DNA of 64,000 bases from an uncultured bacterium. Its GTDB lineage: Bacteria > Hydrogenedentota > CAZGCA01 > CBFDCQ01. Location of the stretch: NCBI GenBank assembly GCA_965603355.1, contig CBFDCQ010000003.1, positions 20,802 to 84,801 of the forward strand, in the 5' to 3' direction. The first letter of the stretch is position 1, and each line of letters begins with the position of its first letter. The notes beneath the pieces are model-generated. The model was given only the letters and a program-made list of their open reading frames with translations. It did not search any database and had not been told where the DNA came from. Below are positions 2,461-60,694 of this stretch, in pieces. The position numbers and the translations under genes are program-made.

Positions 2461-2488
2461 GTAAGTTCCTCGGTGAACAATCCGTCAA

Positions 2489-3310
2489 TCACGGTTGAAA
2501 AGCGCTCAGCCTCTCAACGGCCAGCGCGATGTCCCCAACCCGGTTGTCTCCGCCTTCGCGTTCGATTGCCAACACCCCGCCATACCCGATTTCTTTCAGA
2601 ACATTCAGGAACGTATCTCCTCCCACCTCGCCATCTCCCCAGGGCACTTCCGTACCCCAGGTACCCGGCGTTGGAGTGCGAACAGCGTCTTTAATGTGAA
2701 CGTGCTTTATCCACGGTCCTAACGTGCGCAGCGCTTCCTTCGGGTGCCCCTTGTCGTACAGGATCATGTTTGCCGGATCGAAGTTCACGCCTACAGCCGG
2801 GTGATTCAGACCTTCCAGGAAATGGAGCAATTCCTCGGCCGTTTCCTGGCCGGTTTCCAGCAGGAGCATAATGCCTTTCTCCGCGGCCATATCAACCAGG
2901 GATCGAATCCGGTCGCTGAACTTCCGGGCCTGTTCCGCCCGGGCAGCGTCGAGGAAACCTGCGTGCATGGACAGGTACTCGACGCCAAGATTCGCAGTCG
3001 CATCCGCCGCAGCGCGGAACAGCTCGCGATTTTGCGGCCACTGCTCGTCCGGCATGACGCCGCCGGTCACCTTAATGCTCTCGAGGGTCGAGTAGTCCTC
3101 CTGCGGGAAGTCAATCATCGTGCTGCTTATCGTCCAATTCTGGTTGTTAACCTCCGAGAGGTAGCTGTCGCCGTCGGCTTCCACCGCCGGCCTCACCGCG
3201 AGGTGTATATGCTCCACGCCCAGTCCGCGCATCACCTCCGCAACAGCAGGCACATCCTGTCTCAGCGACCAACTGCACACGCCTACCGGCCAACCGCCAC
3301 TCTTAATCAT
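2489..3310 (-). CDS. sugar phosphate isomerase/epimerase (xylose-isomerase-like TIM barrel)
   Basis: 273-aa ORF with LLLETGQET, VNFDPANMILY and HVHIKD motifs typical of the family. It lies between two Gfo/Idh/MocA genes. Confidence 0.8.
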   Translation of the reverse strand: MIKSGGWPVGVCSWSLRQDVPAVAEVMRGLGVEHIHLAVRPAVEADGDSYLSEVNNQNWTISSTMIDFPQEDYSTLESIKVTGGVMPDEQWPQNRELFRAAADATANLGVEYLSMHAGFLDAARAEQARKFSDRIRSLVDMAAEKGIMLLLETGQETAEELLHFLEGLNHPAVGVNFDPANMILYDKGHPKEALRTLGPWIKHVHIKDAVRTPTPGTWGTEVPWGDGEVGGDTFLNVLKEIGYGGVLAIEREGGDNRVGDIALAVERLSAFQP

Positions 3311-3340
3311 AACTCAACTCCCGAAATCTGTTCTCAGTTC

Positions 3341-4360
3341 CTATGCCAGTGAGATCTTTTTCCCGGTCCGTGCAGATTCCTTTTCTGCCTCAACGATCCT
3401 GACCGAGTTCCGCGATTGCTCCAGCGTCGTGACTTCCTTGACCTTTTCGCCACGTATAGCTTTCGCGAAGTGCGCGATTTCGAAGGAATAGCCATCCCCT
3501 TCTTCGATCGCCGGCGCGAACGCGTTGCCAACAGGTGGACAAACCTTGAACGCGGGTACACGTGTGTTGTCGTAAACGAGCGTCGCCTTCTCCATCTCAA
3601 TATTGAAGCTCATCTCAAACCCGAAGGATGGCATCATCTGCCAACTGCCCTCCGCGGTAATCATTCTATCGTCGCCATAAAGATACTGCGTTACGACATG
3701 CGTCAACCCCAAGCCGAGGCTTTTTGCTCCAAAACTCCGCACCGCACGCGGCATCCCGAGAAGGTACTGGACATAATCGGTATCGTGGATGTGCAGGTCA
3801 AGTGCCATGCCGCCGCTACGGCCCTCGTCCGTGAACCAGTTGCTGCGAGACCAGGTCGGGATCGAACCCAGCCGCCGAAACGTTGCCGCGACGACCTTTC
3901 CGTATTCGCCGCTATCGACCATGCCCTTCGCCTTGGCGTATTCCGGCCAGAACCGAATGCAATGGCCGATCAGGAGGATATTTCCGCTGCGTTTGGCAGC
4001 GGCAATCATATCGTCGCACTGAGCCACATTGAGCGCCATCGGCTTCTCACACAGGACGTGCAGGCCGGCCTCGAGCGCCTTTATCGAGAACTCCGCATGC
4101 AGGTCCGTCGGCAGCGTTATTGAAACTGCGTCCAAGTTGCTCTCCGCCAGCATTTCGTCGAAGTCGCTGTACAGACTGAGCTTATTGAACTCAATTCCTG
4201 CGTTGGTACCCTCAATATTGCCGGAGGCCCCGTTTTCCGTCTCCAACCGATCGGGGTCCGTATCGCAGATTGCTGTGACCTCGACTCCATCTGTAGCGCG
4301 CCAGCGGGCATAATGCATCCGCCCCATGAACCCGCATCCAACTAATGCAACTCTGACCAT
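3341..4360 (-). CDS. Gfo/Idh/MocA-family oxidoreductase (no signal peptide)
   Basis: 339-aa ORF with MVRVALVGCGFMGRMH Rossmann N-terminus and LCEKPMA motif. Confidence 0.85.
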   Translation of the reverse strand: MVRVALVGCGFMGRMHYARWRATDGVEVTAICDTDPDRLETENGASGNIEGTNAGIEFNKLSLYSDFDEMLAESNLDAVSITLPTDLHAEFSIKALEAGLHVLCEKPMALNVAQCDDMIAAAKRSGNILLIGHCIRFWPEYAKAKGMVDSGEYGKVVAATFRRLGSIPTWSRSNWFTDEGRSGGMALDLHIHDTDYVQYLLGMPRAVRSFGAKSLGLGLTHVVTQYLYGDDRMITAEGSWQMMPSFGFEMSFNIEMEKATLVYDNTRVPAFKVCPPVGNAFAPAIEEGDGYSFEIAHFAKAIRGEKVKEVTTLEQSRNSVRIVEAEKESARTGKKISLA

Positions 4361-4510
4361 GTCGTTACTCCCATACAGTATCTACCCAAGGACCACACCC
4401 TCAAGACAGTGATGTCCGCCCTCAACGTGACCTTGCCGCCCGTGAAGACAGCAGTGATTATAATCTACTTGCCAAAGTTCTACAAGATATTCCTCTTCAC
4501 GGAAGCCAGG

Positions 4511-4540
4511 TGGACATTGAGAGGCGGTCTGTTGTATAAT
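4511..4540 (+). promoter_or_regulatory. candidate sigma70-type promoter for secG (TGGACA-N18-TATAAT)
   Basis: TGGACA at 4511-4516 and TATAAT at 4535-4540, about 70 nt upstream of the secG ATG. Confidence 0.4.
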
Positions 4541-4611
4541 CAAGGGCCGAGGCACTGAGCCTTCGGTGGAATCGATTATTTTGAAGGAGTACTAACCGGA
4601 GAATTGGAACA

Positions 4612-4992
4612 ATGTACACGGTATTGCTCATATTGTTCATACCAGTCTGTTTGGCCCTCGTAGCGATAGTTCTGTTGCAGGTGGGAAAAGGGGCAGGTTT
4701 CGCGGGAGCGTTCGGCGCCGGTGGGGGCAGCCAGACAGTATTCGGGGCACGAGCGGGCACTTTCCTTACCAAGTTTACCGCGTGGTTGGCGGCGATGTTC
4801 ATGATCCTGGCATTGGCGATGGCTGTGCTTTCGTCAAAGACAGGGCCTGGCGGTGGTCCGAGACCCGCGCCGGTTGAGGGATCGGGGCAACCCGAACAGG
4901 CCGTGCTGCCGGAGGAAACGGCGGAACCGGAACCACTGACGTCACCGGATCAGCCGGAAGCACCGGAACAGGCGCCCGCAGAAACCGAATAA
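4612..4992 (+). CDS. secG: preprotein translocase subunit SecG with Pro/Glu-rich C-terminal tail
   Basis: 126 aa. Two TM helices flank the Gly-rich loop LLQVGKGAGFAGAFGAGGGSQTVFGARAG, typical of SecG. Confidence 0.8.
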   Translation: MYTVLLILFIPVCLALVAIVLLQVGKGAGFAGAFGAGGGSQTVFGARAGTFLTKFTAWLAAMFMILALAMAVLSSKTGPGGGPRPAPVEGSGQPEQAVLPEETAEPEPLTSPDQPEAPEQAPAETE

Positions 4993-5072
4993 CCTCAAAT
5001 CGTTTTTCCGTCTGGATAGCGTGGTTCGCGCACGAGGGTGTACTGTTGCATTTACCTCGGAAGGAGTCATAA

Positions 5073-12307: not shown

Positions 12308-12613
12308 AATGAGTACCTCACGCGCCTTAACGCGTGCATCTGGAATTGTCCCCGGTCACCCGTGCGCAGTAATATAGCACAAAGCACTTCCGCGCGCAAG
12401 GCTGCGAGTTGCGGAGCATGTTGGGTCTATCCTGTCCTGTCTGCGTGAGGGCTTATCTCAATGTGCAGCGGTGGCCTGTCGAGGCGGAGCCTGCTCTTGG
12501 GAGAGCGCGGCGAGATCGTCGTTTACCATCACGACAGCGGTCTCCCCGCTCTTAGCGTAGTAACCCTTTCTGATGGCGACCTGACGGAACTTGAATCTCC
12601 TATAGATGCTGAG
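11835..12613. repeat. segmental duplication, copy A (kinase 5' part + intergenic region + rimI 3' remnant; ybjQ deleted)
   Basis: Aligns to 15567-16676. The offset is 3732 nt for 11835-~12440 (428 nt perfect, then roughly 88% by eye) and 4062 nt for 12468-12613 (rimI-like). Copy A therefore lacks 330 nt present in copy B. Confidence 0.85.
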
Positions 12614-13807
12614 GGTCTTCTTTGCTTCATCGTTGACTAACGATTCCATTGAGATCACTTTGAAGTACATTATCTCATCACTATCACCCCCATCGCCGAT
12701 GCCGGCCTCGTAGAAGCAGCCGAGATTGCCATCGGGCAGAACCGCAATAGACGAATAACCGGCGGGGCCTGCATGGACTTGTTGTGCGATTGGCCATGTC
12801 TTGCCGTCATCCTTGCTGACTTGAACGGTCAGGTTAAAGCGATCCGTCTGGGTGGCAGGATTTGAAAATATCAGCAGGTTATTGTCATCGGGATTATGAC
12901 TTATCAGGCTTGCCTGGCACACTGGTTCGATAAGCGTCTGGTCATGTTCTATCGGTGACCAGGTAGCTCCACCATCGCTACTGAAAGAAAGTGCACGACA
13001 TTTCTTGCCGTTATAGCTTCGCATATTCATCATCAGTCTCGAGTCGCTCAATTCTACGACGGTGCTTTCGTTACAGCCGGGCGTCATGGATTCGCTGAGT
13101 TTCCAGCTCTTGCCGTGATCGTCACTGTAAATCACGTGGGCTCCATAGCCATGCTTGCCGAACATGCGAAAGACGTCATCGCGTGTTTCGGTGTAGCTGT
13201 GGTTGGCGGGAATTACGAGCCTTCCTTTGTATCGGCCGTTTAGAATTTGAATCCCGTTGCCGGGACCGGTCGCATACCATCGCCAGTCATCTTTGCGGGC
13301 CGTTTCGGAGAGATCGACAGGAGTTGACCATGTCTTGCCGTCGTCATCGGAGCAGCAAACATAAGGCCTTCGGACATCCTTGCTTTCTCCGCGGACTATA
13401 TCGGGTCCATGATCGCCGCCAAAATTCCATGTTGCTAGAAGCCAGATGCGCCCTGTATCCTGATCGACAACAGGACAGGGATTGCCGCAGGTATTTCGGC
13501 CGTCGGACCATACCACCAATCGTTCGCCCCAGGTCTTTCCAGAATCTTCGGACCTGCGTACCAGCAGATCAATATCACCTGTGTCGCGGTCCTCCCGGCC
13601 TTCACAGAAGGCTAGCACGGTCCCTTTCTTGGTGACTATCAACGAGGGAATGCGGCAGTTGTTATATCCGTATTTGTCCTGCTCAAAGAGCACTAGCTTG
13701 TCTGGACGTTTGTCACTAAAGGCGCTCTTGCCTTCGGCAGTCCTAAAGTCGTCTCCAAACGCGAGCAAGGTTGGTATGAGATACATAATGCAAAACATAT
13801 ATTTCAT
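12458..13807 (-). CDS. secreted exo-alpha-sialidase (GH33, BNR/Asp-box) with a C-terminal tail derived from a rimI fragment
   Basis: RIP motif (NNCRIPSL) and five Asp boxes (SEDSGKTW, SDDDGKTW, SDDHGKSW, SSDGGATW, SKDDGKTW). Signal-like N-terminus MKYMFCIMYLIPTLLAFG (start moved to 13807). The last ~40 aa, LSIYRRFKFRQVAIRKGYYAKSGETAVVMVNDDLAALSQE, match the RimI C-terminus encoded at 16553-16676. Confidence 0.8.
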   Translation of the reverse strand: MKYMFCIMYLIPTLLAFGDDFRTAEGKSAFSDKRPDKLVLFEQDKYGYNNCRIPSLIVTKKGTVLAFCEGREDRDTGDIDLLVRRSEDSGKTWGERLVVWSDGRNTCGNPCPVVDQDTGRIWLLATWNFGGDHGPDIVRGESKDVRRPYVCCSDDDGKTWSTPVDLSETARKDDWRWYATGPGNGIQILNGRYKGRLVIPANHSYTETRDDVFRMFGKHGYGAHVIYSDDHGKSWKLSESMTPGCNESTVVELSDSRLMMNMRSYNGKKCRALSFSSDGGATWSPIEHDQTLIEPVCQASLISHNPDDNNLLIFSNPATQTDRFNLTVQVSKDDGKTWPIAQQVHAGPAGYSSIAVLPDGNLGCFYEAGIGDGGDSDEIMYFKVISMESLVNDEAKKTLSIYRRFKFRQVAIRKGYYAKSGETAVVMVNDDLAALSQEQAPPRQATAAH

Positions 13808-15566
13808 TGTAATACCTCTCTTTTGCCACCAAAGAGGGCCATGTACCTTAGATGCCATAGATCATTGCCACAAGCATGGTTAAGGAGGGCACTCGACCGA
13901 TTTAGTGAACCACAAGCTTTATCATGAATACAATTCTCCAGGCGCCTTCCTACTGAATCTGAAACGCATAGAGTTTTGCGTTTCGCAAGCGAAAGCGAAT
14001 TTGCACCACCTTGCCCACTAGAGATGACAAGTCTCTGCCATTCTTCCAGACCGGTGTGAGTCGCAAGCTGTCCACCGCCCTGTACTCCGGTGCCTCTTTA
14101 CCGGAAAAGCCCGGGACCATCTCCCCATGTTCATCAAGTATTTCAGTCTGTATAATACCAGCACTTGCTTGCACATTGACTTCCAGACGATTCCCCTCGA
14201 TCCTGAATCGTTTCGTGAGGACCGTTCCTGGCGTGTCTTTCGCCTCCAAACAGATGAAACCGTCCAGTCTCAGTTTTGCCAGTCCGATATTCAAGTGCCG
14301 GCCGCGGCTGTAGTGACGTTCGTCCATGCCGGCATAGTAGATCCAGTGTTCGTCGTTATGCGTAATGATTTGGGAAGGCGGTTTGATGCCGTCTTTATCA
14401 AAACTTCCAGCGGGACCACGCGGGACAAGGGGTTTGCGCGCGTGTATCCAGCTCTTGTCAAAGTTGACGCCGTCGCGGCTGGTCCCGATATAGAAGTCCA
14501 TAAAGTCTTCTTCGTGGCGAGTGTGATAGTCGTAGCCGTCAAACAACCCTGAACGATCCATGGTGTACACATCCATAAGCGCGAAGTAGACCCCCTCGTA
14601 TATCCAATTGGTCATCCCGTTAAATTGCAGGCGGGGACTGCCCCAGCGATTCTTTTCCTTCCTGGGATCGTCCGCGCAGATTTTGTCGGCTACCGTCTTC
14701 CACGCTGTCGGATGGTTCTGCAAGTCGTTGCCCGCCGTGTGGACCATTATGCGCACTGAACGGATCTCACTGGTCCCACCTATGCCACCCAGGTCTGTGC
14801 GGGTTAACAAACGGTAGGTTTTGGTGATCGGGTCCCACAGGAGCTGGTTATGCGTGTCGGCAGCCCGATAGGACACAGCTTTTCCGTCGTTGTAGTAATT
14901 CCAGTGGATACCGTCAGCCGAATAGGAGATACCAACCTTACAGCCTTCTTCCTTAACGTCGCCTGCACCCTTGTATTTCTCAGAATGTCCCCAGGGCAGG
15001 CTGGGATCAAGGTTGCAACTGAACCCCATGTCACTGAGGACAATGTTGCTCTTGCCGTCTTTTCCCACCATCGGTTTGGTCCAATGGATGCCATCTTTCG
15101 ACTCGGCATAGCCGACGCCGATGCGGCCCGCGTACCACATCTGGAACTTATCGTCCTTATTGTTACGCACCACGCTTGTGTAGTAGCCGAAAGCCAGGGC
15201 CACCGGCGAGCCAGCAGGTTTTTTAAAGTCAGGATGGAAATCAGACTCGAGAGAAGGCTCACATACAACCCCAACCTTCTTAACCACACCCATCTCACGG
15301 GTAATGTTCTGTTTCTCGGCGATGACGTAGTCATCCACGAGCAACTGCTTCTGGGTTCCCACGGCAACGAAATCGTCGGCAGCCATCGCCGGCACAAAGC
15401 ATCCGGCGACAACCGTTAGAATAGCGAGAAATGTGATTAGAAAACGTGGACAAAGGTACATGGTTAAATCCTCGCATCTGTTTCTAGCCGACAATTCCTA
15501 TATAGATCTGCTCTGGCCAATGCCGAGCAAGTTCTCGTCCATTATTGAGAGAACCGCGGCCGCTTC
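12614..15566. other. low-GC two-gene glycan-degradation cassette located at the duplication junction
   Basis: Bounded by the end of rimI-like homology (~12613) and the start of kinase homology (15567). Hand-counted 60-nt lines give about 40-52% GC versus about 57-65% in flanking core genes. Confidence 0.6.
13950..15461 (-). CDS. putative secreted glycoside hydrolase (beta-propeller GH32/43/130-like fold plus C-terminal beta-sandwich); family not resolved
   Basis: Signal/lipobox MYLCPRFLITFLAILTVVAGC. Motifs WYAGR..GYAESKDGIHWTKP, YSADGIHWNYY and GTSRDGVNFDK resemble propeller hydrolases. The C-terminal LRLDGF...VQIRFRLRNAKLYAFQ resembles their beta-sandwich. Start taken at ATG 15461. Confidence 0.5.
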   Translation of the reverse strand: MYLCPRFLITFLAILTVVAGCFVPAMAADDFVAVGTQKQLLVDDYVIAEKQNITREMGVVKKVGVVCEPSLESDFHPDFKKPAGSPVALAFGYYTSVVRNNKDDKFQMWYAGRIGVGYAESKDGIHWTKPMVGKDGKSNIVLSDMGFSCNLDPSLPWGHSEKYKGAGDVKEEGCKVGISYSADGIHWNYYNDGKAVSYRAADTHNQLLWDPITKTYRLLTRTDLGGIGGTSEIRSVRIMVHTAGNDLQNHPTAWKTVADKICADDPRKEKNRWGSPRLQFNGMTNWIYEGVYFALMDVYTMDRSGLFDGYDYHTRHEEDFMDFYIGTSRDGVNFDKSWIHARKPLVPRGPAGSFDKDGIKPPSQIITHNDEHWIYYAGMDERHYSRGRHLNIGLAKLRLDGFICLEAKDTPGTVLTKRFRIEGNRLEVNVQASAGIIQTEILDEHGEMVPGFSGKEAPEYRAVDSLRLTPVWKNGRDLSSLVGKVVQIRFRLRNAKLYAFQIQ

Positions 15567-48567: not shown

Positions 48568-48597
48568 TTGACAATAAGGAGGAGATTCTGGTACACT
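48568..48597 (+). promoter_or_regulatory. candidate promoter of the wzm-wzt locus (TTGACA-N18-TACACT)
   Basis: Located in the 473-nt pyrK/wzm divergent gap, about 70 nt upstream of the wzm ATG. Confidence 0.45.
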
Positions 48598-48669: not shown

Positions 48670-49494
48670 ATGGCTTTAGGTGGAATTCGCGGTTTTGTGA
48701 CCGATATGGTTCAGCATCGCGAGCTGTTAGTGAGCCTCGCCTCAAAGGAGTTCAAGATCAGGTACAAGGTGGCTGCGCTGGGCTTCCTGTGGACGGTTCT
48801 GAACCCGTTGTTACTAATGTTGGTTCTGAGCTTCGTACTGAAGAAAATTGGCCTTCGCTGGGAGGAATCCGTCGATAAGGACTTGATTCCGGTGTGGCTG
48901 CTTTGTGCGCTAATCCCGTGGAACTTCATGGCGCACTCCTTGTCGCGGAGCCCGGGCGTGCTTGTGGACAATGCAGGGTTGATTCAAAAGGTTTACTTTC
49001 CGCGCGAGATCATCCCTCTGGCAAGGGTGATGGCGAACTCTCTAAACTTTCTCATAGCACTTGTGGTGTTACTATGTTTCCTACTCGCATTTGGGGTGAA
49101 ACCAAGCATATGGTGGATAATCGGTGCGCCCTTGATAATCATCGGCGAAATCCTGTTCGTTGTAGGTATGTGTCTTGCCGTCTCCAGTCTCAACGTGTTT
49201 TATCGGGACGTGGCGTTCGTTGTGGAAGTGCTCCTGCTGGTTTGGTGGTGGGGAACGCCGATCTTTTACCCTCACGATCAGGTGATCCAACCCGAGGTAT
49301 CGGAGCTTGTCTACCGCATATATATGGCGAACCCGATGGCGGCCACCGTCGTTTCGATGCGGCAGATCTTCCTCGAGAGACGGTTCCCGGATGCCTCTCT
49401 TGTGCTCACGTTGTTCGCGGCAGCGTTCCTATCGCTCATTATCGGCACGGTGATTTTCCGTCGTCGACGGGGCGTATTGGCGGATTTTGTATAG
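48670..49494 (+). CDS. wzm: ABC-2-type polysaccharide/polyol-phosphate export permease (Wzm/TagG-like)
   Basis: 274 aa, six predicted TM helices, N-terminal ELLVSLASKEFKIRYKVAALGFLWTVLNP motif typical of ABC-2 exporters. Confidence 0.85.
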   Translation: MALGGIRGFVTDMVQHRELLVSLASKEFKIRYKVAALGFLWTVLNPLLLMLVLSFVLKKIGLRWEESVDKDLIPVWLLCALIPWNFMAHSLSRSPGVLVDNAGLIQKVYFPREIIPLARVMANSLNFLIALVVLLCFLLAFGVKPSIWWIIGAPLIIIGEILFVVGMCLAVSSLNVFYRDVAFVVEVLLLVWWWGTPIFYPHDQVIQPEVSELVYRIYMANPMAATVVSMRQIFLERRFPDASLVLTLFAAAFLSLIIGTVIFRRRRGVLADFV

Positions 49495-49496
49495 AG

Positions 49497-52283
49497 ATGA
49501 GTGTGCTTTCCATAAGAGACGTTGGCAAAAAGTACAGGCTGCGGCGAGAGACACGCATGTTCACTAACGAGCTTGTGCGTCGCCTGCTGAGAAGACGTCA
49601 AACCGAGGAGTTCTGGGCGCTAAGGGACATAACATTCGACGTCGAAGCCGGAGAATCGTTGGGCATTATAGGGCCAAACGGTTCGGGCAAGAGCACTTTA
49701 CTGAGGATCATCGCAGGAGTCACGGAATGTACAGAAGGGGAGGTGTCGGTACAGGGTCGAGTCGCCTCGCTGCTGGAACTTGGCACCGGATTTCATCCGT
49801 ATCTGACGGGCCGCGAGAACGTTTACCTGAACGGCGCGATATTGGGGATAGAGAAGGAAGAGATAGAACGTAATTTCGGCAAAATCGAGGAGTTCGCTGG
49901 AATTGGACGATTCATAGACGTTCCTGTAAAAGACTACTCTTCGGGAATGTACGTGCGGCTGGCATTCGCCGTGGCAATTAATTCCGACCCGGACATCTTC
50001 CTCGTTGACGAGGTTCTCGCGGTGGGGGATGAGGAGTTCCAGCAGAGGTGTCGCGCAAAGATACGCGAGTTGCAGGGCTCCGGCAAGACCATCGTGTTCG
50101 TGTCGCACGACCTTAACATAGTGAACGAGCTGTGCGACAGAGTCATCCTCCTGCGTGAAGGAAGGATAATGGAGAAGGGGTCGGCTGAAAGAACGATAAA
50201 CTTCTACCTGCATACCATCGGCAAGCAAGAGGGAATTGCGTTCCTGAAAGCAGGTTCGCTCGAACTCATTTTCAATAACGGCAAGATCGCGCTTTTCAGT
50301 GACGGCCAGATGTTAACCAGAGCACACGGAGGGCACACCTCGGTCTTGTCGCGCGGGATTTGGTACGAATCCACGGGGGCAAACTGGCACGTCGAGACGT
50401 GCACCGACACGGAACTGGTAGCCACCGGCACGTACACGAGAATACCGGTCAGCCAGACGTGGCGGATCAAGCTTGAGGCACCGTCGACGGTGCTGTGGAA
50501 TGTGGAAATAGAGGCTGAGGCCGGTGCAGAAGTCAATGGGCGGCATGCGTCTCTGGTACTATCGACCTCGTATACGAAGTGGTTCACCGAGCTCAGAGAA
50601 AGCGAGTTTCCCAGAATAGATCCCGGCGATACGCGGTGGACACCGGTGTTTCAGCGTGACGAACACGTTAAGATCATAGGAGCGACGGCCGGCGAGGACG
50701 AAGCTGGACTTCCGTCTGTGTGCTGGGAGACGGATGACCGCGCACCGCTGAGTTCGCTCTTGGTGCTGAACAGCGACTACACCCTCAACTCCAGGGTGCT
50801 GCAGACCGTTGAATTACGTCCCGGCGACGTGCGTGAACTCTCGGCCGGCAAGGAACTCTTTGTCTCGGCCAGGATCGACCTCGGACAACCGTTGGAGCTC
50901 ATCCGAAAGCGCCTCAAGGAAGCCCGTCGCGAACGAAGGGCTATCCTGAAAAACGGCAACCTCAGTTTGGCGTTCGAAGAAGGCAGTTTCCGCCTGTTCC
51001 TGGACGACAGGGAAATAACAGGAGGGCATGGGGCGTACAGTTCCATCTTGTCTCGGGGAATGTGGATCGATTCGTCGACAGCGCAATGGCGTCTTGAGTC
51101 ACATTCGGACACTGAGCTGGTCGCAATAGGAATATCCAGAAGGATACCGATCTGCCAGATATGGCGGATCAAGTTGGAAAGCCCTACAGCCATTCGCTGG
51201 TCCGTCGAGATGGAGGTCCAAGATGATACCGTCGTGTCGCGGCGACATATCTCACTGATACTGCCCACCGAGTACACGAGATGGTTCACGGAAAAGGAGT
51301 CGGGCAAGTTCCCGACAATTCATCCTGATGAGACCGAATGGATACATTTGTCGCACCGGGACGAGCAGGTCAAGTTCATGGTGGCAGCACCTGAAGAGGT
51401 GGGGCCCGATTCGCCGGTGGTCTCGGTTGAGGCGGAGATGTTGGCGCCGAAGGTGGCTTTTCACGTGATAAACAGCAGCTATGCGCTCAATTCGAGAGTG
51501 TTACAGGTGCTGGAGCTGCACCCGGGAGATCACGAAGAACTTCTTCCCGGGAGGCAGTCGTTCGCTTCGGTAATGATACACCTGGACAGGTCCGAGGAGC
51601 TTGTCCAAGAACGGCTCACGGAAGTGTACCGAGGCACAATGGTGCGGGCAGGCAACCTCAATGCCGTGCTTGACAGGGGGAAGATCCGCCTTCTGTGGCG
51701 AGACAACGAGGTAACCCGAGACCGTTGCGTTTTCTTTTCAATCCGCAGCGGCGATCTGTGGGACGAGTCAGTGCAGGGGCGCTGGCGTGTTGAGCAAGTT
51801 TCTCCGAACGAATTGAGGGCGGCAGGAACGATGTTGAGGCTGCCCGTGGTCCAGGAATGGACGCTGAGAACGTGTGAGGACGGTACGCTCGAGTGGAAAA
51901 TCTGTCTCGACGTCAGAGAGAGGTTGCATGTTGAGGAGCTGGTCGTTAACGCGATGCTCTCGCCGGAATATGACGCTTGGGCAACCGCCCACGAATCAGG
52001 GGCTTTCCCGCCGTTCGCGCCGAGGATTGGTGAGTGGACGCACTTGGCCAAGGTGCTCAAGCCGGGCGCCTTTGCAGAGGCCGGATGCACAGATGTCGCC
52101 GGGAACCGCCCGCGCACGGTTCGCATCTCGTTCGAGGCGCCGTGGATAGCCATGGCAGCCAATGCCGGCAGCCTGGAAACGGCACGTGTGATACAGGGTG
52201 TGAAACAGTATCCGGAAGGCGCCGGTGTACTGGAGCCGGGACGGCATGAGGTCTTTTCTGCTAAGATACTATGTAATGAGTAG
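49497..52283 (+). CDS. wzt: Wzt/TagH-like ABC exporter ATPase with three tandem C-terminal modules (928 aa)
   Basis: Walker A GPNGSGKST, signature YSSGM, Walker B IFLVDE, then three collinear ~215-235-aa repeats. ATG 49497 lies 2 nt after the wzm stop. The upstream part of the 1129-aa track ORF overlaps wzm in another frame and is rejected. Confidence 0.85.
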   Translation: MSVLSIRDVGKKYRLRRETRMFTNELVRRLLRRRQTEEFWALRDITFDVEAGESLGIIGPNGSGKSTLLRIIAGVTECTEGEVSVQGRVASLLELGTGFHPYLTGRENVYLNGAILGIEKEEIERNFGKIEEFAGIGRFIDVPVKDYSSGMYVRLAFAVAINSDPDIFLVDEVLAVGDEEFQQRCRAKIRELQGSGKTIVFVSHDLNIVNELCDRVILLREGRIMEKGSAERTINFYLHTIGKQEGIAFLKAGSLELIFNNGKIALFSDGQMLTRAHGGHTSVLSRGIWYESTGANWHVETCTDTELVATGTYTRIPVSQTWRIKLEAPSTVLWNVEIEAEAGAEVNGRHASLVLSTSYTKWFTELRESEFPRIDPGDTRWTPVFQRDEHVKIIGATAGEDEAGLPSVCWETDDRAPLSSLLVLNSDYTLNSRVLQTVELRPGDVRELSAGKELFVSARIDLGQPLELIRKRLKEARRERRAILKNGNLSLAFEEGSFRLFLDDREITGGHGAYSSILSRGMWIDSSTAQWRLESHSDTELVAIGISRRIPICQIWRIKLESPTAIRWSVEMEVQDDTVVSRRHISLILPTEYTRWFTEKESGKFPTIHPDETEWIHLSHRDEQVKFMVAAPEEVGPDSPVVSVEAEMLAPKVAFHVINSSYALNSRVLQVLELHPGDHEELLPGRQSFASVMIHLDRSEELVQERLTEVYRGTMVRAGNLNAVLDRGKIRLLWRDNEVTRDRCVFFSIRSGDLWDESVQGRWRVEQVSPNELRAAGTMLRLPVVQEWTLRTCEDGTLEWKICLDVRERLHVEELVVNAMLSPEYDAWATAHESGAFPPFAPRIGEWTHLAKVLKPGAFAEAGCTDVAGNRPRTVRISFEAPWIAMAANAGSLETARVIQGVKQYPEGAGVLEPGRHEVFSAKILCNE

Positions 52284-52355
52284 GACTGTTGTTGTGACGG
52301 AGCATGATAGGCTTCCGAATCGGGGGAATAGGAATTGAACATAACATCGGAAAGA

Positions 52356-54263
52356 ATGAAGTCGGGTTTTCTGCGCTCTATTCGTAAGTGGGCAATCAGG
52401 AGTGGGCTGTCTTCGCTGATAGGCGAGAGCCGAATTGCCCACAAGCTGCGTCGAATGTACTACAGGAAGTTCCCGCTGCCGCGAGTGCGGCTGCCGGGCG
52501 ACCCGATCGTGCTCAAGACGCAGTACCCGGACGATAAGGAGCGATTCAGCGTGCTGCTCGTTCAGGTGCCGCTTCCCGGCAACGAACGGCACAAGAGGAT
52601 CATACCGCTGGGAATCTCCTACCTTGCATCGTACCTGATCGATAAGATGCCCGACGTGAACGTCGGCATTCTCGATGCTCAGGTGCAGAGCTTGAACTAT
52701 TGGGAGACGGTCACGAAGATCGCCGAGCGCAAGTGGGACGTCGTCGGGATAGGCTACTGGGCGGTGCAGGCACAGTTTGCGCGCAACGTGAGTCTGGCGA
52801 TCAAATCGCGGTGCCCGGACACCGTCGTCGTGCATGGCGGAGTACAGCCGACAGCGGTTCCGGAGGAGGCGCTGGAGTCGGCCGACTATCTCGTGTTGCA
52901 CGAGGGAGAGATCACGTTTCACGAGCTCATCAAGGCACTCAGAGAAGGAACGGATCCCTCTTCGATACGCGGTCTGGCATACAAGAGAGACGAACAGGTT
53001 GTAAGAACGGAGCCCAGGGAGTTCATTCAAGATCTGGACGTCCTGCCGTTTCCGGCGTGGCACCTCCTGCCGATCGAACAGTACAAGATGCCGCTGCACG
53101 TCGTCGGCGGCGATAGGATGCCTATTGTCGGGTCGCGCGGCTGTCCGTACGAATGTTCGTTCTGTGCGTCGCCTCTCATGTGGAAACGCCGCGTGAGGTG
53201 GCGCTCACCCGAGAACGTTGTGGCCGAGATGAAGGCGATGATCGAGCAGTACGGTATCAACTACTTCCACTTCTGGGACGACAACCTTACGCTCAAGCCG
53301 GATTACATCAGAGGTGTGTGCGATCGCATCATCGAGGGGGAGCTTGATGTCAAATGGATCGGCCTCGACCGATCCGAACATCTCAACAAACATCCTGAGC
53401 TGCTCGAGCTCATGAAAAGGGCCGGATGTGTCGGTATAGAGATAGGGATCGAGAGCGCCAATCCCGACACGCTGCTCCATATTCGAAAGAATCAGGGAGT
53501 CAACGAGAACCACATCGCACTGATGAACCAGAGAAAAGCGGGACTGTACCCGCTGTACACGTGCATGGCGTTCAATCCGGGCGAGTCGATCACGGGGTAC
53601 TATCTGCAAAGAGAGTTTCTCGACGAGGCTCAGGAGGGCTACCACTGGTACGAGCATTTTCACCCGTTCCCGTTTCCGCTGTACATGGGCCAGTTCTCCA
53701 CCCCGTACCCGGGCACGCGACTTCACGAGGAAGCACCCGATCTCGGTGTGGTGCTCCTCGACGATCCGGAAGAGCGGTTTCATCACAAGATCAATTTCGT
53801 GCCTGACTCGCTTCTGGAGGACGTGCCGACACGCACAATCCATCAGCTCGAAGCGCACCACTACTACCTGTATCTGCTTGCAACGTGGAGCGCGCTTTAT
53901 ACCGAGTTCAACATGCGCAACACCCGCGACGAACTTGCGCACAGACTCCATGATAGCTGGCGTTTTCTGAACGCGTACTTCGGCAGGTGCGAAGGCAGGT
54001 TTAGCGTCCGGCAGTTGGCCATACAGCTTGCCGAGTATCTGAATTTCAACTTCAACAAGAGCGTGCGGCTGGCGGCGTTCACTACGTATGTTTTTGGTCA
54101 GCTCGGCATAGTGCGGTCGGCTCTTTATCACACTGACCTGAAGATCGAGCCGAGATGCTTTGATATCCCCGGGGACCGTAAATGGCAGATCGTTGAGCTC
54201 CTGAACGATATGGGCGTCACGCCCAAGAGCATGGTGGTGGACTTCAGCCTGTATCCGGGCTGA
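52356..54263 (+). CDS. cobalamin(B12)-binding-domain radical SAM enzyme (class B) with ~250-aa C-terminal extension
   Basis: N-terminal B12-binding-like Rossmann (VLLVQVPLP..PLGISYLASYL..VVVHGG) followed by VGSRGCPYECSFCASP (CxxxCxxC). The start is uncertain (TTG 52335, ATG 52356 or a later ATG). Confidence 0.8.
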   Translation: MKSGFLRSIRKWAIRSGLSSLIGESRIAHKLRRMYYRKFPLPRVRLPGDPIVLKTQYPDDKERFSVLLVQVPLPGNERHKRIIPLGISYLASYLIDKMPDVNVGILDAQVQSLNYWETVTKIAERKWDVVGIGYWAVQAQFARNVSLAIKSRCPDTVVVHGGVQPTAVPEEALESADYLVLHEGEITFHELIKALREGTDPSSIRGLAYKRDEQVVRTEPREFIQDLDVLPFPAWHLLPIEQYKMPLHVVGGDRMPIVGSRGCPYECSFCASPLMWKRRVRWRSPENVVAEMKAMIEQYGINYFHFWDDNLTLKPDYIRGVCDRIIEGELDVKWIGLDRSEHLNKHPELLELMKRAGCVGIEIGIESANPDTLLHIRKNQGVNENHIALMNQRKAGLYPLYTCMAFNPGESITGYYLQREFLDEAQEGYHWYEHFHPFPFPLYMGQFSTPYPGTRLHEEAPDLGVVLLDDPEERFHHKINFVPDSLLEDVPTRTIHQLEAHHYYLYLLATWSALYTEFNMRNTRDELAHRLHDSWRFLNAYFGRCEGRFSVRQLAIQLAEYLNFNFNKSVRLAAFTTYVFGQLGIVRSALYHTDLKIEPRCFDIPGDRKWQIVELLNDMGVTPKSMVVDFSLYPG

Positions 54264-54333
54264 TGTGCACGCCCGACCCGCCGTCGAAGGTTTTCGCCGA
54301 AGTCCTTGCCGTTACCCCTGAGGTCGGAATGCG

Positions 54334-55599
54334 ATGACGAAGATAGCGATAGTTGACCTGATGTTCTCCTGGCCGCCTCACGGCGGCGGTTGTCTGGACC
54401 TGAAGGAGACAGCCACGGGGCTGACACGGCTGGGGTACGACGTGCGGCTCTTTTCGGCAAACTGCTCGTGGGCGTGGCAGCGCGGTACGGTCGACGAAGA
54501 ACTGCTCGAGTTCCCGGTGGAGAAAGTGGAGCTTACCTACCGAACCTTCAACAGGTTTTCGGTTCCAAAACGTTTCCGCAAAGCGGTCGACAGTTACTCG
54601 CCTGATATCGTGTTTTTCGGCGACAGCTACTTTCTCAAACCTTTTCTCATTCGCGCCTTCGCGGACTACCCCGTCATCGCGCGGTTCTACACGTACGAGA
54701 TGTTCTGCCCGCGGTACTACATGCTGTTTCGTGACGGGAGAATATGTGACACGCATTATCTCAAGACTCCTGTGTACTGTATGCGGTGCGCGATGGAGGC
54801 TATGCGCGATCCAATACTGCGATGGCGCCACGACGTGTGGAGTCACGAGTTTGTCGCGGCCCTGGCCTTCCTTCCGGGATACTACAAGCTCGTTCGGTCC
54901 GCCATAGACGCGTGCGATTCTCTGATCGTGTACAACAGGATGACGCGCGACCTGTTCACGCCTTATCACGACAGCGTACATGTCGTTCCGGGCGGCGTCG
55001 ACGTCGAGCGGTTCCGCTACTCAGAACCGCCTCGGAAAGGCGGTCAGGACACGAAGTACATATTCATGAGCGGGAGGGTCGCGGACGAGAGAAAGGGGCT
55101 TCACGTCTTGCGCCAAGCGGCGAACATACTTCGCCAAGAGCGCCACGATTTCAAGGTTTGGGTGACTCACGACGACGTCACGATGAACGACGAGACAGTC
55201 GAGGCGATCGGGTGGCACGCGCACGACGAGCTTGCAGATCTTAACTCCCGTGCCGACATATGTGTGGCGCCGTCGCTCTGGGCGGAACCGTTCGGGATGG
55301 TTGCCGTTGAGGCGATGGCTTGCGGCAGACCTATTGTGGCATCCAGGGTCGGTGGCTTAGCGGATAGTGTTGTGGACGGTGAAACGGGATTCCTCGTTCC
55401 GCCGGACGATCCTGTAGCCCTGGCGGACAAGTTACGCGTGCTGCTCAACGACTACGAGCTGAGGCTCCAGATGGGAAAACGTGGCAGAGCGCGTGTGGAG
55501 CAGAATTTTCACTGGCCGAAGATCGTCGGGAAACATATTCCGCCAGTACTGGACGAGGTTCTCGCGAAGCGCAGACAGGTTAGGGGTGGTTCCTCATGA
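54334..55599 (+). CDS. GT-B glycosyltransferase, family 4-like
   Basis: 421 aa with C-terminal EX7E region EPFGMVAVEAMACGRPIVASRVGGLADSVVDGETGFLV. Confidence 0.85.
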   Translation: MTKIAIVDLMFSWPPHGGGCLDLKETATGLTRLGYDVRLFSANCSWAWQRGTVDEELLEFPVEKVELTYRTFNRFSVPKRFRKAVDSYSPDIVFFGDSYFLKPFLIRAFADYPVIARFYTYEMFCPRYYMLFRDGRICDTHYLKTPVYCMRCAMEAMRDPILRWRHDVWSHEFVAALAFLPGYYKLVRSAIDACDSLIVYNRMTRDLFTPYHDSVHVVPGGVDVERFRYSEPPRKGGQDTKYIFMSGRVADERKGLHVLRQAANILRQERHDFKVWVTHDDVTMNDETVEAIGWHAHDELADLNSRADICVAPSLWAEPFGMVAVEAMACGRPIVASRVGGLADSVVDGETGFLVPPDDPVALADKLRVLLNDYELRLQMGKRGRARVEQNFHWPKIVGKHIPPVLDEVLAKRRQVRGGSS

Positions 55600-56108
55600 G
55601 ACAGCCGCCGAGAAGAATGCAGGACATAGACGCGGAGCGCGTGACGCTGTTCTGCTCGATAGGGACACATTTCGAGGCTGCTGTGCACGAGCTCAAACAG
55701 CAGTTTCCCCGGGCAAAGCTCACCGCTGTGGCGCCGCCGTCCATTGCGGAACCGTTGGCCGAACCGGGGCTTCTCGATAATGTGATTGAAATGACGAAAA
55801 ACAAGCTTCGCGTTGTGAAGGACTTCCCGGAGTGTGTGCGGCTTCTCAGAGCGATTCGCGAAAAAAAAAGCGACCTTATCGTAACGATGTACGACAGCAG
55901 GGCGCTGAATCTGCTCCAATCGTTGAGCGGGGCCCGCAACCATGCGGTATTCGACACTCGGCACGTTTTATGCCCAGTCAGAGTTGGCAGATTATACCTC
56001 TTGACGCTGGTGTTCGGGGGCGCCGGCAGACTCCTCCTGGGAGGTATAATGTACGCCCTAATCCAGGGTACGCTTACGGCGTGGACGGTTTTTCAAAAGC
56101 GGCGATGA
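55596..56108 (+). CDS. hypothetical protein resembling the N-terminal half of a GT9-type glycosyltransferase, with C-terminal TM helix
   Basis: ATGA overlap with the GT4 stop. The pattern VTLFCSIGTHFEAAVHELKQQFPRAKLTAV...LRAIREKKSDLIVTMYDSRALNLLQSLSGAR is reminiscent of heptosyltransferase-family N-domains. Weak, by eye only. Confidence 0.4.
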   Translation: MRQPPRRMQDIDAERVTLFCSIGTHFEAAVHELKQQFPRAKLTAVAPPSIAEPLAEPGLLDNVIEMTKNKLRVVKDFPECVRLLRAIREKKSDLIVTMYDSRALNLLQSLSGARNHAVFDTRHVLCPVRVGRLYLLTLVFGGAGRLLLGGIMYALIQGTLTAWTVFQKRR

Positions 56109-56882
56109 CCGCAACCCCTCGATCAAAACGCTCGGTGGCGAGCCCCCCTCGCCTCCAATTTGCGTCAGAGGAACAGGCAGGTCGTCTAGCCCCGGAGGGG
56201 CCTGCTGCTCGGGCGGCGTGGCCGGTGGCGGCGCTTCAACTGGCGCTGCGGCGACGGACTCGGGTGCCGGAGACAGCGCTACCCCTGTCAGAAGCCTTAT
56301 GCCTGGTTCGCGGTTCCAGTCCAGATCGGGATTGAATCTGTAAAGGAACCGTAGAGAACCCTTCTGTTCGGTCCTCTGGAAGTCAGTGTCCCTTCTCACC
56401 AGGTTCCCGGACGCTGGATCTCCCGACGACCGCCTCCGCGTTTCCCACACGTCGTAATTGTATTTGACAATCACCTCATAAGGGTCTTTGAGCAACGACC
56501 CAGTATCTCTCACGTCTACTATCTCGTAAGATCTAAAGTCACGCCTAGACTTAAAGAAAAAGCCCAACTTCATAGGGTTGGGGTCCGGGAGACCCTTGAA
56601 ACGTATCGGTTTCCCGTATACTCGCTCAGCCGCGTTGAGCTGCTTCATCCGAGCAACAGCCAACGCGTCAACGCCGCCTTTCACCTTCCCGATGATTTCA
56701 GTCTTGTGGCGGACCATTGACCGTTTCATGGCCGTTTCCACCGCGTCGGGCAGCCCTTCAAGGCTGACCCGAATACATCCGTGCAACACCACACCCGCCA
56801 ACAGTACCAGAACTACGCGTGGGAACAACACCGTAGTCATCGCCTTGTAACGTACCAGATTCAGCCTTAGTTTTGCCCACAT
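56058..56882 (-). CDS. hypothetical lipoprotein with Pro-rich C-terminal region
   Basis: ATG 56882 with GGAGGG about 10 nt upstream. Signal plus LHGC lipobox-like site. The 3' end overlaps the convergent gene by 51 nt. Confidence 0.45.
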   Translation of the reverse strand: MWAKLRLNLVRYKAMTTVLFPRVVLVLLAGVVLHGCIRVSLEGLPDAVETAMKRSMVRHKTEIIGKVKGGVDALAVARMKQLNAAERVYGKPIRFKGLPDPNPMKLGFFFKSRRDFRSYEIVDVRDTGSLLKDPYEVIVKYNYDVWETRRRSSGDPASGNLVRRDTDFQRTEQKGSLRFLYRFNPDLDWNREPGIRLLTGVALSPAPESVAAAPVEAPPPATPPEQQAPPGLDDLPVPLTQIGGEGGSPPSVLIEGLRSSPLLKNRPRRKRTLD

Positions 56883-57203
56883 TTCTATCAGTCCCTCCAA
56901 CAACTCTCCTCCAATTCGCTACATCTCAACAGAACTCACACGGATAATTATAATTCCGGTTTGCAGCCCTGTCAACTGATTCGTCGACTCACCTCTTAGA
57001 ACGCATATTCGCGGCAAACGGGTTACACCGTGCGGTTGACACCGCGCGCCGCTTCTGATATCGTTTGATCCGGGCAATTTGCAGGACTTTGAATATGAAA
57101 GGTGCGGATCACGCCGTAATCACTCCTTGAGGTCTGTCGTGAAGAAACGTAAACTCGCTGTCCAGCCCGCACATCCGACTTTCTGAGGGAACCGAGGTGG
57201 GAG

Positions 57204-60139: not shown

Positions 60140-60694
60140 CTACTCTCCCCGGTTGGTGGGGCAGACATTCCTGTCTGCCACCTCTTTCATATACCAACCG
60201 TCGTACTGTAATGGGTCGTCAATCAACCCATACTTAAGTGGATTGTGCAACATGTATTGGAGTTTCTCCACGAACTCATCATTGTCGCGCATGATCCTGT
60301 CGTAGTACTCATCCTGCCAGACATGACCTTTAGTCCCTCTCTTCTCATTGAGCTTCCTGGCTGTGACACCCTTAATACCTTTCATAACCTGCGTCAGCGA
60401 TCTTGCAGGACCCGGGTACAGCAACATGTGAACATGGTCCGGCATGACCTGAACCGCGCGCAGCTCGTAGAACCGAGGGTCCCCGGAGCGAATGTGCTGC
60501 AGTACTAGTCGTCGCTCCTCCGCTGAGAGCTTGCCTGACTGCAGCCTGAAAGTCACAAAATAGGTCGCTCCAGGAAAGCGCCAGTGTGGGAGCCTGCGGC
60601 GCGTGATTCTTAGTCGGGGATCAGGCAAGGTTCTCTCGCTCCTCGTAGTCCTGACCTTGCGGTCAGGGACAGACAGGAATGTCTGCCCCACCAT
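60140..60694 (-). CDS. REP-associated tyrosine transposase (RAYT, IS200/IS605 Y1 HUH family)
   Basis: RRRLPHWRFPGATYFVTFRL, HUH motif PDHVHMLL, and catalytic Tyr region VWQDEYYDRIMRD..HNPLKYGL. Flanked by inverted REPs. Confidence 0.85.
   Translation of the reverse strand: MVGQTFLSVPDRKVRTTRSERTLPDPRLRITRRRLPHWRFPGATYFVTFRLQSGKLSAEERRLVLQHIRSGDPRFYELRAVQVMPDHVHMLLYPGPARSLTQVMKGIKGVTARKLNEKRGTKGHVWQDEYYDRIMRDNDEFVEKLQYMLHNPLKYGLIDDPLQYDGWYMKEVADRNVCPTNRGE
60155..60182. repeat. REP hairpin at the RAYT 3' end
   Basis: GGTGGGGCAGACATTCCTGTCTGCCACC. It is the reverse complement of the copy at 60666-60692. Confidence 0.8.
60666..60692. repeat. REP hairpin at the RAYT 5' end
   Basis: GGGACAGACAGGAATGTCTGCCCCACC. 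The first codons of the RAYT ORF (MVGQTFLSV) are encoded by it. Confidence 0.8.

Follow-up and report, generated by a model that had tools for sequence, protein, structure and literature searches.

A compact Wzm/Wzt, radical SAM and GT4 cassette with tandem supersandwich modules: a candidate glycan tailoring and export operon of a probably Hydrogenedentes-like bacterium

Here we describe a cassette of five co-oriented genes in a 64,000-nucleotide window (the whole stretch of DNA that was analysed) of contig CBFDCQ010000003.1, from an uncultured bacterium. The genes encode an ABC-2 type permease (wzm), an ATPase with a long C-terminal extension (wzt), a radical S-adenosylmethionine (SAM) enzyme with a B12-binding domain (rSAM), a glycosyltransferase of family GT4 and a small protein, ORF5 (ORF, open reading frame). 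We establish the gene content of the cassette, the predicted fold of the modules that make up the Wzt extension, and the genomic coupling of these modules to rSAM and GT4. So far undescribed, the pairing of a module-bearing Wzt with a B12-type radical SAM enzyme and a GT4 is found again in many uncultured anaerobes. In our judgment the cassette is, with moderate probability, an operon for ATP-binding cassette (ABC) transporter-dependent export, in which GT4 and ORF5 would glycosylate a membrane-bound acceptor, rSAM would tailor the sugar, Wzm/Wzt would export the product, and the modules would bind the glycan and so couple tailoring to export. This is supported by the tight packing of the genes, their domain content, the supersandwich fold of the modules, the adjacency of module and radical SAM genes and the fusions between them, and also by the presence of rSAM-GT4-ORF5 in O-antigen-type clusters (candidate division B38 and Aminicenantes), by LpxK in the host and by the likeness of rSAM to AprD4.

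What is understood of ABC-transporter-dependent glycan export comes from a few proteobacterial and Aquifex models, in which one small jelly-roll domain of Wzt reads a methyl, phosphate or Kdo (3-deoxy-D-manno-oct-2-ulosonic acid) cap. We know of no role in surface-polysaccharide assembly described for any radical SAM member of the enzyme class found here. In the systems considered below, a larger recognition unit (1-8 tandem supersandwich modules, 615 clusters, in no domain database) replaces the jelly roll, and the module is genomically locked to radical SAM enzymes. If this link is functional, it would bring oxygen-independent C-H chemistry to the cell-surface sugars of uncultured anaerobes and add a new family of carbohydrate-binding modules to glycobiology; a cassette of five genes would be small enough for reconstitution, making the question directly testable.

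Wzt modules and their coupling to radical SAM genes

The wzm product matches ABC2_membrane (PF01061, 5e-15) and, well under the equivalog cut-off, the NCBIfam galactan Wzm/RfbD model (4.6e-12). The nucleotide-binding domain (NBD) of Wzt matches ABC_tran (2e-20), and GPNGSGKST, YSSGM, DIFLVDE and VSHD motifs are seen in the translation. An ABC-2 permease gene coupled to a gene for a Wzt/TagH-type ATPase is the hallmark of a Wzm/Wzt exporter, and these matches bear out the assignment made in an earlier reading of the same DNA without database searches (the sequence-only reading). Among NCBIfam models the NBD scores best against TagH (PRK13545, 8e-61), followed by galactan Wzt (3e-50), both below equivalog cut-offs. 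The likeness to TagGH is limited to this best match. Unlike TagGH, the NBD reaches 206 bits against a cut-off of 538 bits, the host encodes LpxK, and the 46 other window ORFs that were scanned (mostly of at least 150 aa; hereafter the scanned ORFs) yielded no genes for polyol-phosphate synthesis.

The extension of Wzt had been described as triplicated, and it does consist of three modules of ~225 aa each (Table 1). Modules 1 and 2 share 45% identity (E 1e-70), modules 2 and 3 share 30% (E 8e-31), and modules 1 and 3 share 26% (E 8e-20); the divergent module 3 is retained as the terminal module in two-module Wzt orthologues. Residues that do not vary among the modules include W46, W54, R72, W79, Y116, W119, W138, N182 and R190 (module 2 numbering). 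The sequence-only reading had proposed a search with Wzt_C (PF14524), the jelly-roll domain of known extended Wzt proteins, and this model matches neither the whole Wzt nor any of 21 modules scanned individually. The modules match no other Pfam or NCBIfam model, and a PDB sequence search with the extension gives no match at E up to 10.

The AlphaFold2 model of module 2, built from an alignment of 21 module sequences, is all-beta and confident (pLDDT 92, pTM 0.90), and predicts a galactose-mutarotase-like beta-supersandwich. Foldseek returns 38 PDB matches at E up to 1e-3, nearly all of this fold, the best of them at E 3e-6 to 1e-3 with TMq 0.5-0.68 and sequence identities of 6-13%. They include N-terminal or accessory domains of glycoside hydrolases, namely FpGalNase (9ayu; E 3e-6, TMq 0.68), LacZ domain 5, GH97 SusB, GH65 and GH63, as well as the glucan-handling OpgG/OpgD, hexose-6-phosphate mutarotases and the YidC P1 domain; no carbohydrate-binding module of a Wzt is among the top 50 matches. 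The galactose-mutarotase-like supersandwich is typical of sugar-handling proteins, and the question raised in the sequence-only reading, whether the Wzt extension has a carbohydrate-binding type of fold, is thus answered by AlphaFold2 and Foldseek with a carbohydrate-handling one. The likeness is at the level of fold only: unlike the supersandwich domains of glycoside hydrolases, OpgG/OpgD and YidC P1, the module is predicted to be cytoplasmic, occurs in tandem and is fused to an ABC ATPase or a radical SAM enzyme.

The module family is previously unannotated in domain databases. An exhaustive HMMER profile search puts its size at 615 clusters (E up to 1e-3), of which 283 reach E up to 1e-30; this corrected the 12 clusters shown by a word-indexed protein search. 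Of the 160 best-scoring module proteins, 107 consist of a Wzt-type NBD followed by 2-7 modules, and most of the others are gene fragments. Copy number spans 1-8 across the family, with both one-module and eight-module forms present.

Loci encoding a module-bearing Wzt were inspected in nine lineages (L008, L014, L011, L002/L098-L100, L012, L096, L116, L117 and L103). A B12-type radical SAM gene lies near wzt in all nine, one or two genes away in eight of them and ~4 kb away in the Myxococcales locus L103. The order wzm-wzt-rSAM-GT4-ORF5 is kept in L008/L009, with flanks as in the window, and in L014/L015 and L011, where the flanks are different. The synteny of rSAM with wzm/wzt holds at rSAM identities of 91% (L008), ~82% and ~53%, and extends to B38 and Aminicenantes and, with a 569-aa member of the rSAM family, to L116. 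Loss of this synteny in relatives had been named in the sequence-only reading as a reason to abandon the link; instead, the linkage of module and radical SAM survives the change of flanking genes.

The loci of candidate division B38, Aminicenantes and their relatives (L002, L098-L100) are full polysaccharide clusters that include a one-module wzt, a Phosphodiest-family gene and rSAM-GT4-ORF5. Their other genes encode further GT4 and GT2 enzymes, a SPASM radical SAM enzyme, a second B12-type radical SAM enzyme, a WecA-like phosphoglycosyltransferase, an epimerase and two ligase-like proteins of the Wzy_C type. In L116, a three-module wzt is followed by a GT4, a 569-aa radical SAM enzyme of the same family as rSAM (E 3e-246), a cassette-type GT4, three SPASM radical SAM enzymes and a further B12-type radical SAM enzyme. 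In the Omnitrophica loci L012, L096 and L117, wzt is followed by a gene for a B12-type radical SAM enzyme of another subfamily that itself carries an N-terminal module (751-788 aa; L012 10324-12579, L096 14107-16362, L117 3796-6162), and the closest counterpart of this fused module is the last one of the neighbouring Wzt. Other fusions combine the same parts differently: B12-type radical SAM, module, SPASM and module (P0202), NBD, modules and radical SAM/SPASM (P0172), and a GT-C transferase (PMT_2) with three modules (P0145). In L118, a PMT_2 GT-C with three modules (1295-5038) lies beside cobalamin-salvage genes (CobD, BtuCDF-like) and a B12-type radical SAM gene.

The linkage is specific, because none of 80 generic B12-type radical SAM loci, taken as a negative control from full rSAM alignment patterns, contains a module. 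Searching with an alignment of the rSAM C-terminal part yields 18 loci, and searching with the single rSAM protein yields one GTDB locus. At the loci of more distant rSAM paralogues (L004, L104, L109), local profiles detect neither a GT4 nor a Wzm, Wzt NBD or module.

Several accessory genes accompany related loci. One to three SPASM radical SAM domains occur beside the B12-type enzyme in L096 (16349-20692), L116 (7157-10937) and L012 (12579-15389), and a 1447-aa protein with three radical SAM/SPASM units is present among the related clusters. No correlation is evident between the number of modules and the number of radical SAM domains (3 and 1 in the window, 5 and at least 4 in L096, 3 and 5 in L116). 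Genes for ATP sulfurylase, adenosine 5'-phosphosulfate (APS) kinase and Phosphodiest (PF01663) are found just upstream of the cassette in L011 (3170-7893) and L014 (1063-3141), and a Phosphodiest gene is found between wzt and rSAM in the B38/Aminicenantes type (L002, 8148-9959). Decoration with sulfate or phosphodiester groups is one thing that these neighbours may suggest; the scanned ORFs of the window yielded none of the three genes.

The radical SAM enzyme, GT4 and ORF5

The rSAM matches the B12-binding domain (PF02310, 1.5e-13, residues 88-198) and the radical SAM domain (PF04055, 5.5e-17, residues 266-417), and aligns over its full length (100% coverage) with orthologues of 640-647 aa. 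Across 88 homologues, the CX3CX2C cysteines C270, C274 and C277 do not vary. The AlphaFold2 model made from these 88 sequences (pLDDT 90.5) has class B architecture, with the CX3CX2C motif in a radical SAM barrel that follows a B12-binding Rossmann domain, and Foldseek places it with TsrM, CysS, AprD4, TokK, OxsB and MgmA (E 1e-19 to 1e-16). The sequence-only reading had called the enzyme a class B radical SAM protein with a large C-terminal extension. The class stands; the extension (residues 490-642) is a helical domain whose motifs are conserved family-wide, down to 37% identity, so its interpretation as an add-on specific to this locus was rejected. Two further members of the same family, P0078 and P0079 (853-855 aa), are fused to a C-terminal GT2 domain.

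B12-domain radical SAM enzymes that tailor sugars include GenK/GenD1 and HpnJ. The best PDB sequence match of rSAM is AprD4 (6fd2, 2e-17), a sugar diol dehydratase acting on an aminoglycoside sugar, and the rSAM model matches the AprD4 structure with a TM-score of 0.71 (normalised to AprD4) at ~20% identity. Three parts are common to the AprD4 group and rSAM: a Rossmann domain of B12 type at the N-terminus, a radical SAM barrel with the CX3CX2C motif and a helical domain at the C-terminus. Enzymes of that group act on the sugar rings of small-molecule antibiotics or hopanoids, outside Wzm/Wzt loci, whereas the rSAM described here is encoded within one. AprD4 itself has the Rossmann domain and binds no cobalamin (PMC12931638).

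The rSAM gene might also have an ordinary polysaccharide or teichoic-acid exporter for a neighbour by chance, its product serving an unrelated pathway (BchE-like tetrapyrrole, ribosomally synthesized and post-translationally modified peptide (RiPP), or lipid), which we regard as very improbable. BchE is indeed the best NCBIfam match of rSAM, the module protein of L118 adjoins cobalamin-salvage genes, and the distant paralogues mentioned above lack the other components. The BchE match, however, reaches 176 bits against a cut-off of 481 bits, and all 22 NCBIfam matches of rSAM, which include named equivalogs such as BchE, HpnJ and PhpK, fall far below their cut-offs. Genes for tetrapyrrole (bch) or hopanoid synthesis and RiPP partner or precursor genes are all missing among the scanned ORFs. 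A BchE/tetrapyrrole identity was rejected on both grounds, and the possibility raised in the sequence-only reading, that the closest homologues would prove to be tetrapyrrole, hopanoid or RiPP enzymes with their usual partners, did not materialise. Chance is also difficult to reconcile with a neighbour relation that is conserved while flanks change, with fusions of radical SAM enzymes to modules and to GT2, and with the absence of modules from the 80 generic loci.

The GT4 has a Glycos_transf_1 C-terminal domain (PF00534, 1.4e-30; PF13692, 3.9e-29) and a GT4-type N-terminal domain (PF13439, 2.7e-11), as is characteristic of the family, and its PDB relatives are Tll1590, MshA, BshA-like enzymes and PimA/PimB. 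The N-terminal domain contains an insertion with four cysteines (C-x12-C-x10-C-x2-C, residues ~125-153) that are invariant in five orthologues and may form a zinc or iron-sulfur site, which would be unusual for a GT4. In orthologous loci the GT4 gene always follows the rSAM gene. A reading of the cassette as a defence system was dropped: despite a GT4-conflict Pfam match, PADLOC gave generic ATPase matches only.

ORF5 was proposed to be a half-GT9-like membrane protein, for which there are weak signals only: a match of its N-terminal half to TIGR02201 (E 1.2e-4, 21 bits against a 170-bit cut-off), a profile match to WaaF (1psw, E 0.08) and a single homologue with a GT9-type JGI name. ORF5 has no Pfam match, and a full two-domain GT9 (PF01075, or TIGR02201 at its cut-off) is not detected in it. 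Its homologues form eight clusters only, among 5.8 billion, and in every orthologous locus its gene is conserved behind that of the GT4. A convergent gene overlaps the 3' end of ORF5 by 51 nt and encodes a lipoprotein-like product with an invariant Cys behind a hydrophobic leader and a Pro-rich tail, without a match in Pfam or in a PDB sequence search. It adjoins ORF5 in L008, L014, L011, L001 and L097, though other flanks differ, and accompanies rSAM-GT4-ORF5 in all Hydrogenedentes-like loci, including those without a pump. The tightest conserved unit is rSAM-GT4-ORF5 with this convergent gene.

A serious rival for the minimal locus, which we think rather unlikely, is a membrane glycolipid pathway in place of a polymer one. 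GT4 and ORF5 would glycosylate a lipid (e.g. diacylglycerol, a phospholipid or polyprenol), rSAM would remodel the head-group sugar, Wzm/Wzt would flip the glycolipid, and the convergent lipoprotein would receive it in the periplasm. Such a role would suit a minimal, self-contained cassette amid housekeeping genes, with no other glycosyltransferase or phosphoglycosyltransferase among the scanned ORFs, and a triad that travels with the lipoprotein gene even where the pump is absent. The PDB and NCBIfam relatives of the GT4 include enzymes acting on lipids or small molecules (PimA/PimB, MshA, BshA and GlcN-phosphatidylglycerol synthase), and HpnJ, a B12-domain radical SAM enzyme, remodels the sugar of a hopanoid glycolipid. 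It fits less well with the B38/Aminicenantes loci and L096, where these units, or the module-bearing Wzt and its radical SAM partners, belong to full polymer-type clusters that also encode a WecA-like initiating enzyme and ligase-like Wzy_C proteins, and a tandem of 2-8 binding modules is hard to square with a single-sugar head group.

Proposed pathway and comparison with known exporters

In the tailoring and export pathway that we favour, all steps would take place on the cytoplasmic face of the inner membrane. In the first step, GT4 would add a sugar to a membrane-bound acceptor, probably helped by ORF5 as a membrane-tethered half-Rossmann protein. In the second, rSAM would act on an unactivated carbon of the added sugar or of a residue next to it, perhaps through methylation, dehydration or rearrangement. 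The tailored lipid-linked glycan or glycolipid would then be translocated by the Wzm/Wzt pump, with the three supersandwich modules of each Wzt subunit serving as cytoplasmic glycan-binding domains that capture the substrate. The order of these steps, their chemistry, the glycan nature of the substrate and the recognition target of the modules are what we infer.

Several observations weigh against this pathway. The pump is not obligatory, because L001 and L097 each have rSAM-GT4-ORF5 but no transporter (wzm/wzt) within 10 kb. Many related clusters encode SPASM radical SAM enzymes, whose usual substrates are peptides. The supersandwich fold is not proof of glycan binding, because it is shared by YidC P1, which to our knowledge is not known as a sugar binder. 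The scanned ORFs include neither an initiating phosphoglycosyltransferase nor a second, polymerising glycosyltransferase. The evidence is also wholly computational, and the sequences are metagenome-assembled.

O-antigen ABC transporters of the Wzm/Wzt type with a C-terminal carbohydrate-binding domain have been described in E. coli O9a and Aquifex aeolicus (PMC9445017, PMC6379404). Like them, the cassette has a permease gene translationally coupled to that of a Wzt/TagH-type ATPase with an extra cytoplasmic C-terminal domain, here predicted to be of beta-sandwich type, and its exporter genes adjoin putative glycan-tailoring genes. Unlike them, Wzt bears three ~225-aa supersandwich modules (1-8 across the family) instead of a ~150-aa Wzt_C jelly roll (PF14524), and polymerising glycosyltransferases are absent among the scanned ORFs. 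Of the features that mark an O9a-type Wzt system, neither the Wzt_C domain nor a dedicated chain terminator is found: a WbdD-like kinase/methyltransferase, or any terminator with a kinase or SAM-methyltransferase domain, is lacking in the cassette and its neighbours, and the search for a WbdD-like gene among the scanned ORFs was likewise negative. A B12-domain radical SAM enzyme is found as the partner instead. The sequence-only reading had remarked on the absence of an initiating phosphoglycosyltransferase, a polymerising glycosyltransferase set and a WbdD-like gene, which agrees with the scan.

In that reading, rSAM may install a non-canonical cap, which the Wzt modules would read. Spelled out, the cap would terminate the chains of a polysaccharide whose synthesis is encoded elsewhere in the genome, and would be read before export as by the carbohydrate-binding module of E. 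coli O9a. This proposal is a special case of the tailoring and export pathway, not an alternative to it, and we find it doubtful. The extended Wzt in a locus without a WbdD-like terminator, the strict adjacency of module-bearing Wzt and radical SAM genes across lineages, and the distinct, always retained terminal module are all in keeping with a cap, and the recognition of a modified terminus by a Wzt with a carbohydrate-binding module has precedent (PMC9445017). However, the modules are not Wzt_C domains, and no characterised B12-type radical SAM enzyme is known as a glycan capper. Mildly against a cap, the radical SAM enzyme itself is fused in three lineages to a module closest to the last one of its cognate Wzt; these fusions weaken the proposal because the enzyme must bind unmodified substrate, and they are easier to explain if the module recognises a glycan or lipid-linked substrate common to enzyme and pump. 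A copy number of 1-8 also fits multivalent polymer binding better than the reading of a single terminus. Overall the sequence-only interpretation is partly supported, and its checks on synteny, homologues and fold produced nothing that refutes it.

More tentatively, glycan systems of this kind may make up a widespread class that has gone unrecognised, with its minimal form in the window and its other members in anaerobes that are for the most part uncultured (Hydrogenedentes-like, Omnitrophota, Aminicenantes, candidate division B38 and others); we put this forward as a possibility on which we would not yet insist. In this class, radical SAM enzymes (B12-type, often together with SPASM) would modify the sugars of lipid-linked glycans at unactivated carbons, and a new tandem carbohydrate-binding module, common to the Wzt exporter, tailoring enzymes and a GT-C transferase, would recognise the glycan. 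If so, ABC-transporter-dependent glycan export would gain both a new recognition domain and a new sugar chemistry. Nothing relevant was found in a search for literature linking radical SAM enzymes to Wzm/Wzt export, O-antigen, polysaccharide or Hydrogenedentes, and the public annotations of the locus proteins are generic. Polysaccharides, glycans and sugars all go unmentioned in a 2026 review of B12-radical SAM enzymes (PMC12931638).

Locus layout, flanking genes and host

Coordinates of the cassette and associated features are collected in Table 1. The five genes are co-oriented and tightly packed, as read from the sequence at the outset: wzm (ending with TAG at 49494) and wzt (ATG at 49497) are separated by 2 nt, and the GT4 stop and ORF5 start overlap as ATGA.

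Table 1. Positions, strands and descriptions of the cassette genes, Wzt domains and promoter-like sites, numbered from the first nucleotide of the window
Feature	Position	Strand	Description
wzm	48670-49494	+	ABC-2 type permease, 274 aa
wzt	49497-52283	+	ATPase with extension, 928 aa
Wzt NBD	49497-50216	+	Residues 1 to ~240, Wzt/TagH type; PF00005 ABC_tran 2e-20
Wzt module 1	50226-50897	+	Residues 244-467, predicted beta-supersandwich repeat
Wzt module 2	50928-51596	+	Residues 478-700; the module that was modelled
Wzt module 3	51624-52283 (including stop codon)	+	Residues 710-928; divergent terminal module
rSAM	52335-54263	+	B12-binding-domain radical SAM enzyme, class B architecture, 642 aa, TTG start
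GT4	54334-55599	+	GT-B glycosyltransferase, 421 aa
ORF5	55596-56108	+	170 aa; Rossmann-like N-terminal part, hydrophobic C-terminal segment
Lipoprotein-like ORF	56058-56903	-	Convergent; candidate sixth cassette member
TTGACA-N18-TACACT	48568-48597	+	Sigma-70-like promoter candidate; 10/12 positions; TG before -10; 73 nt upstream of wzm
TTGACA-N17-TATAAT	56947-56975	-	Perfect, 12/12 positions; upstream of lipoprotein-like ORF

The gap upstream of wzm, given as 473 nt in the sequence-only reading, has this length if the pyrK-like gene starts where it yields a 280-aa product, as in the L008 orthologue; from the GTG start of the longest ORF it is 392 nt. The TTGACA-N18-TACACT motif reported in this gap is present and is kept as a candidate promoter. 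By itself it is weak evidence, because sites of this kind occur five times in the region, against 4.1 in shuffles.

The scanned neighbours are mostly housekeeping genes (murA-like, his, trpE, ilv, glmU, prs, arg, pyrD/pyrK, mgtE, signal peptidase and lpxK). The presence of lpxK indicates that the host makes lipid A and is thus diderm. One closer named relative of rSAM (65% identity) comes from a Candidatus Hydrogenedentes metagenome-assembled genome, and the host is probably an uncultured, Hydrogenedentes-like bacterium. An IS200-like (Y1_Tnp) transposase ORF (60140-60694, minus strand) lies 4 kb downstream of the cassette and is missing at the corresponding place in L008, the relative with 91% rSAM identity. 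Elsewhere in the window, on the minus strand, a BNR/sialidase-like beta-propeller protein adjoins a 514-aa ORF without a Pfam match (ORFs 12458-13858 and 13950-15494).

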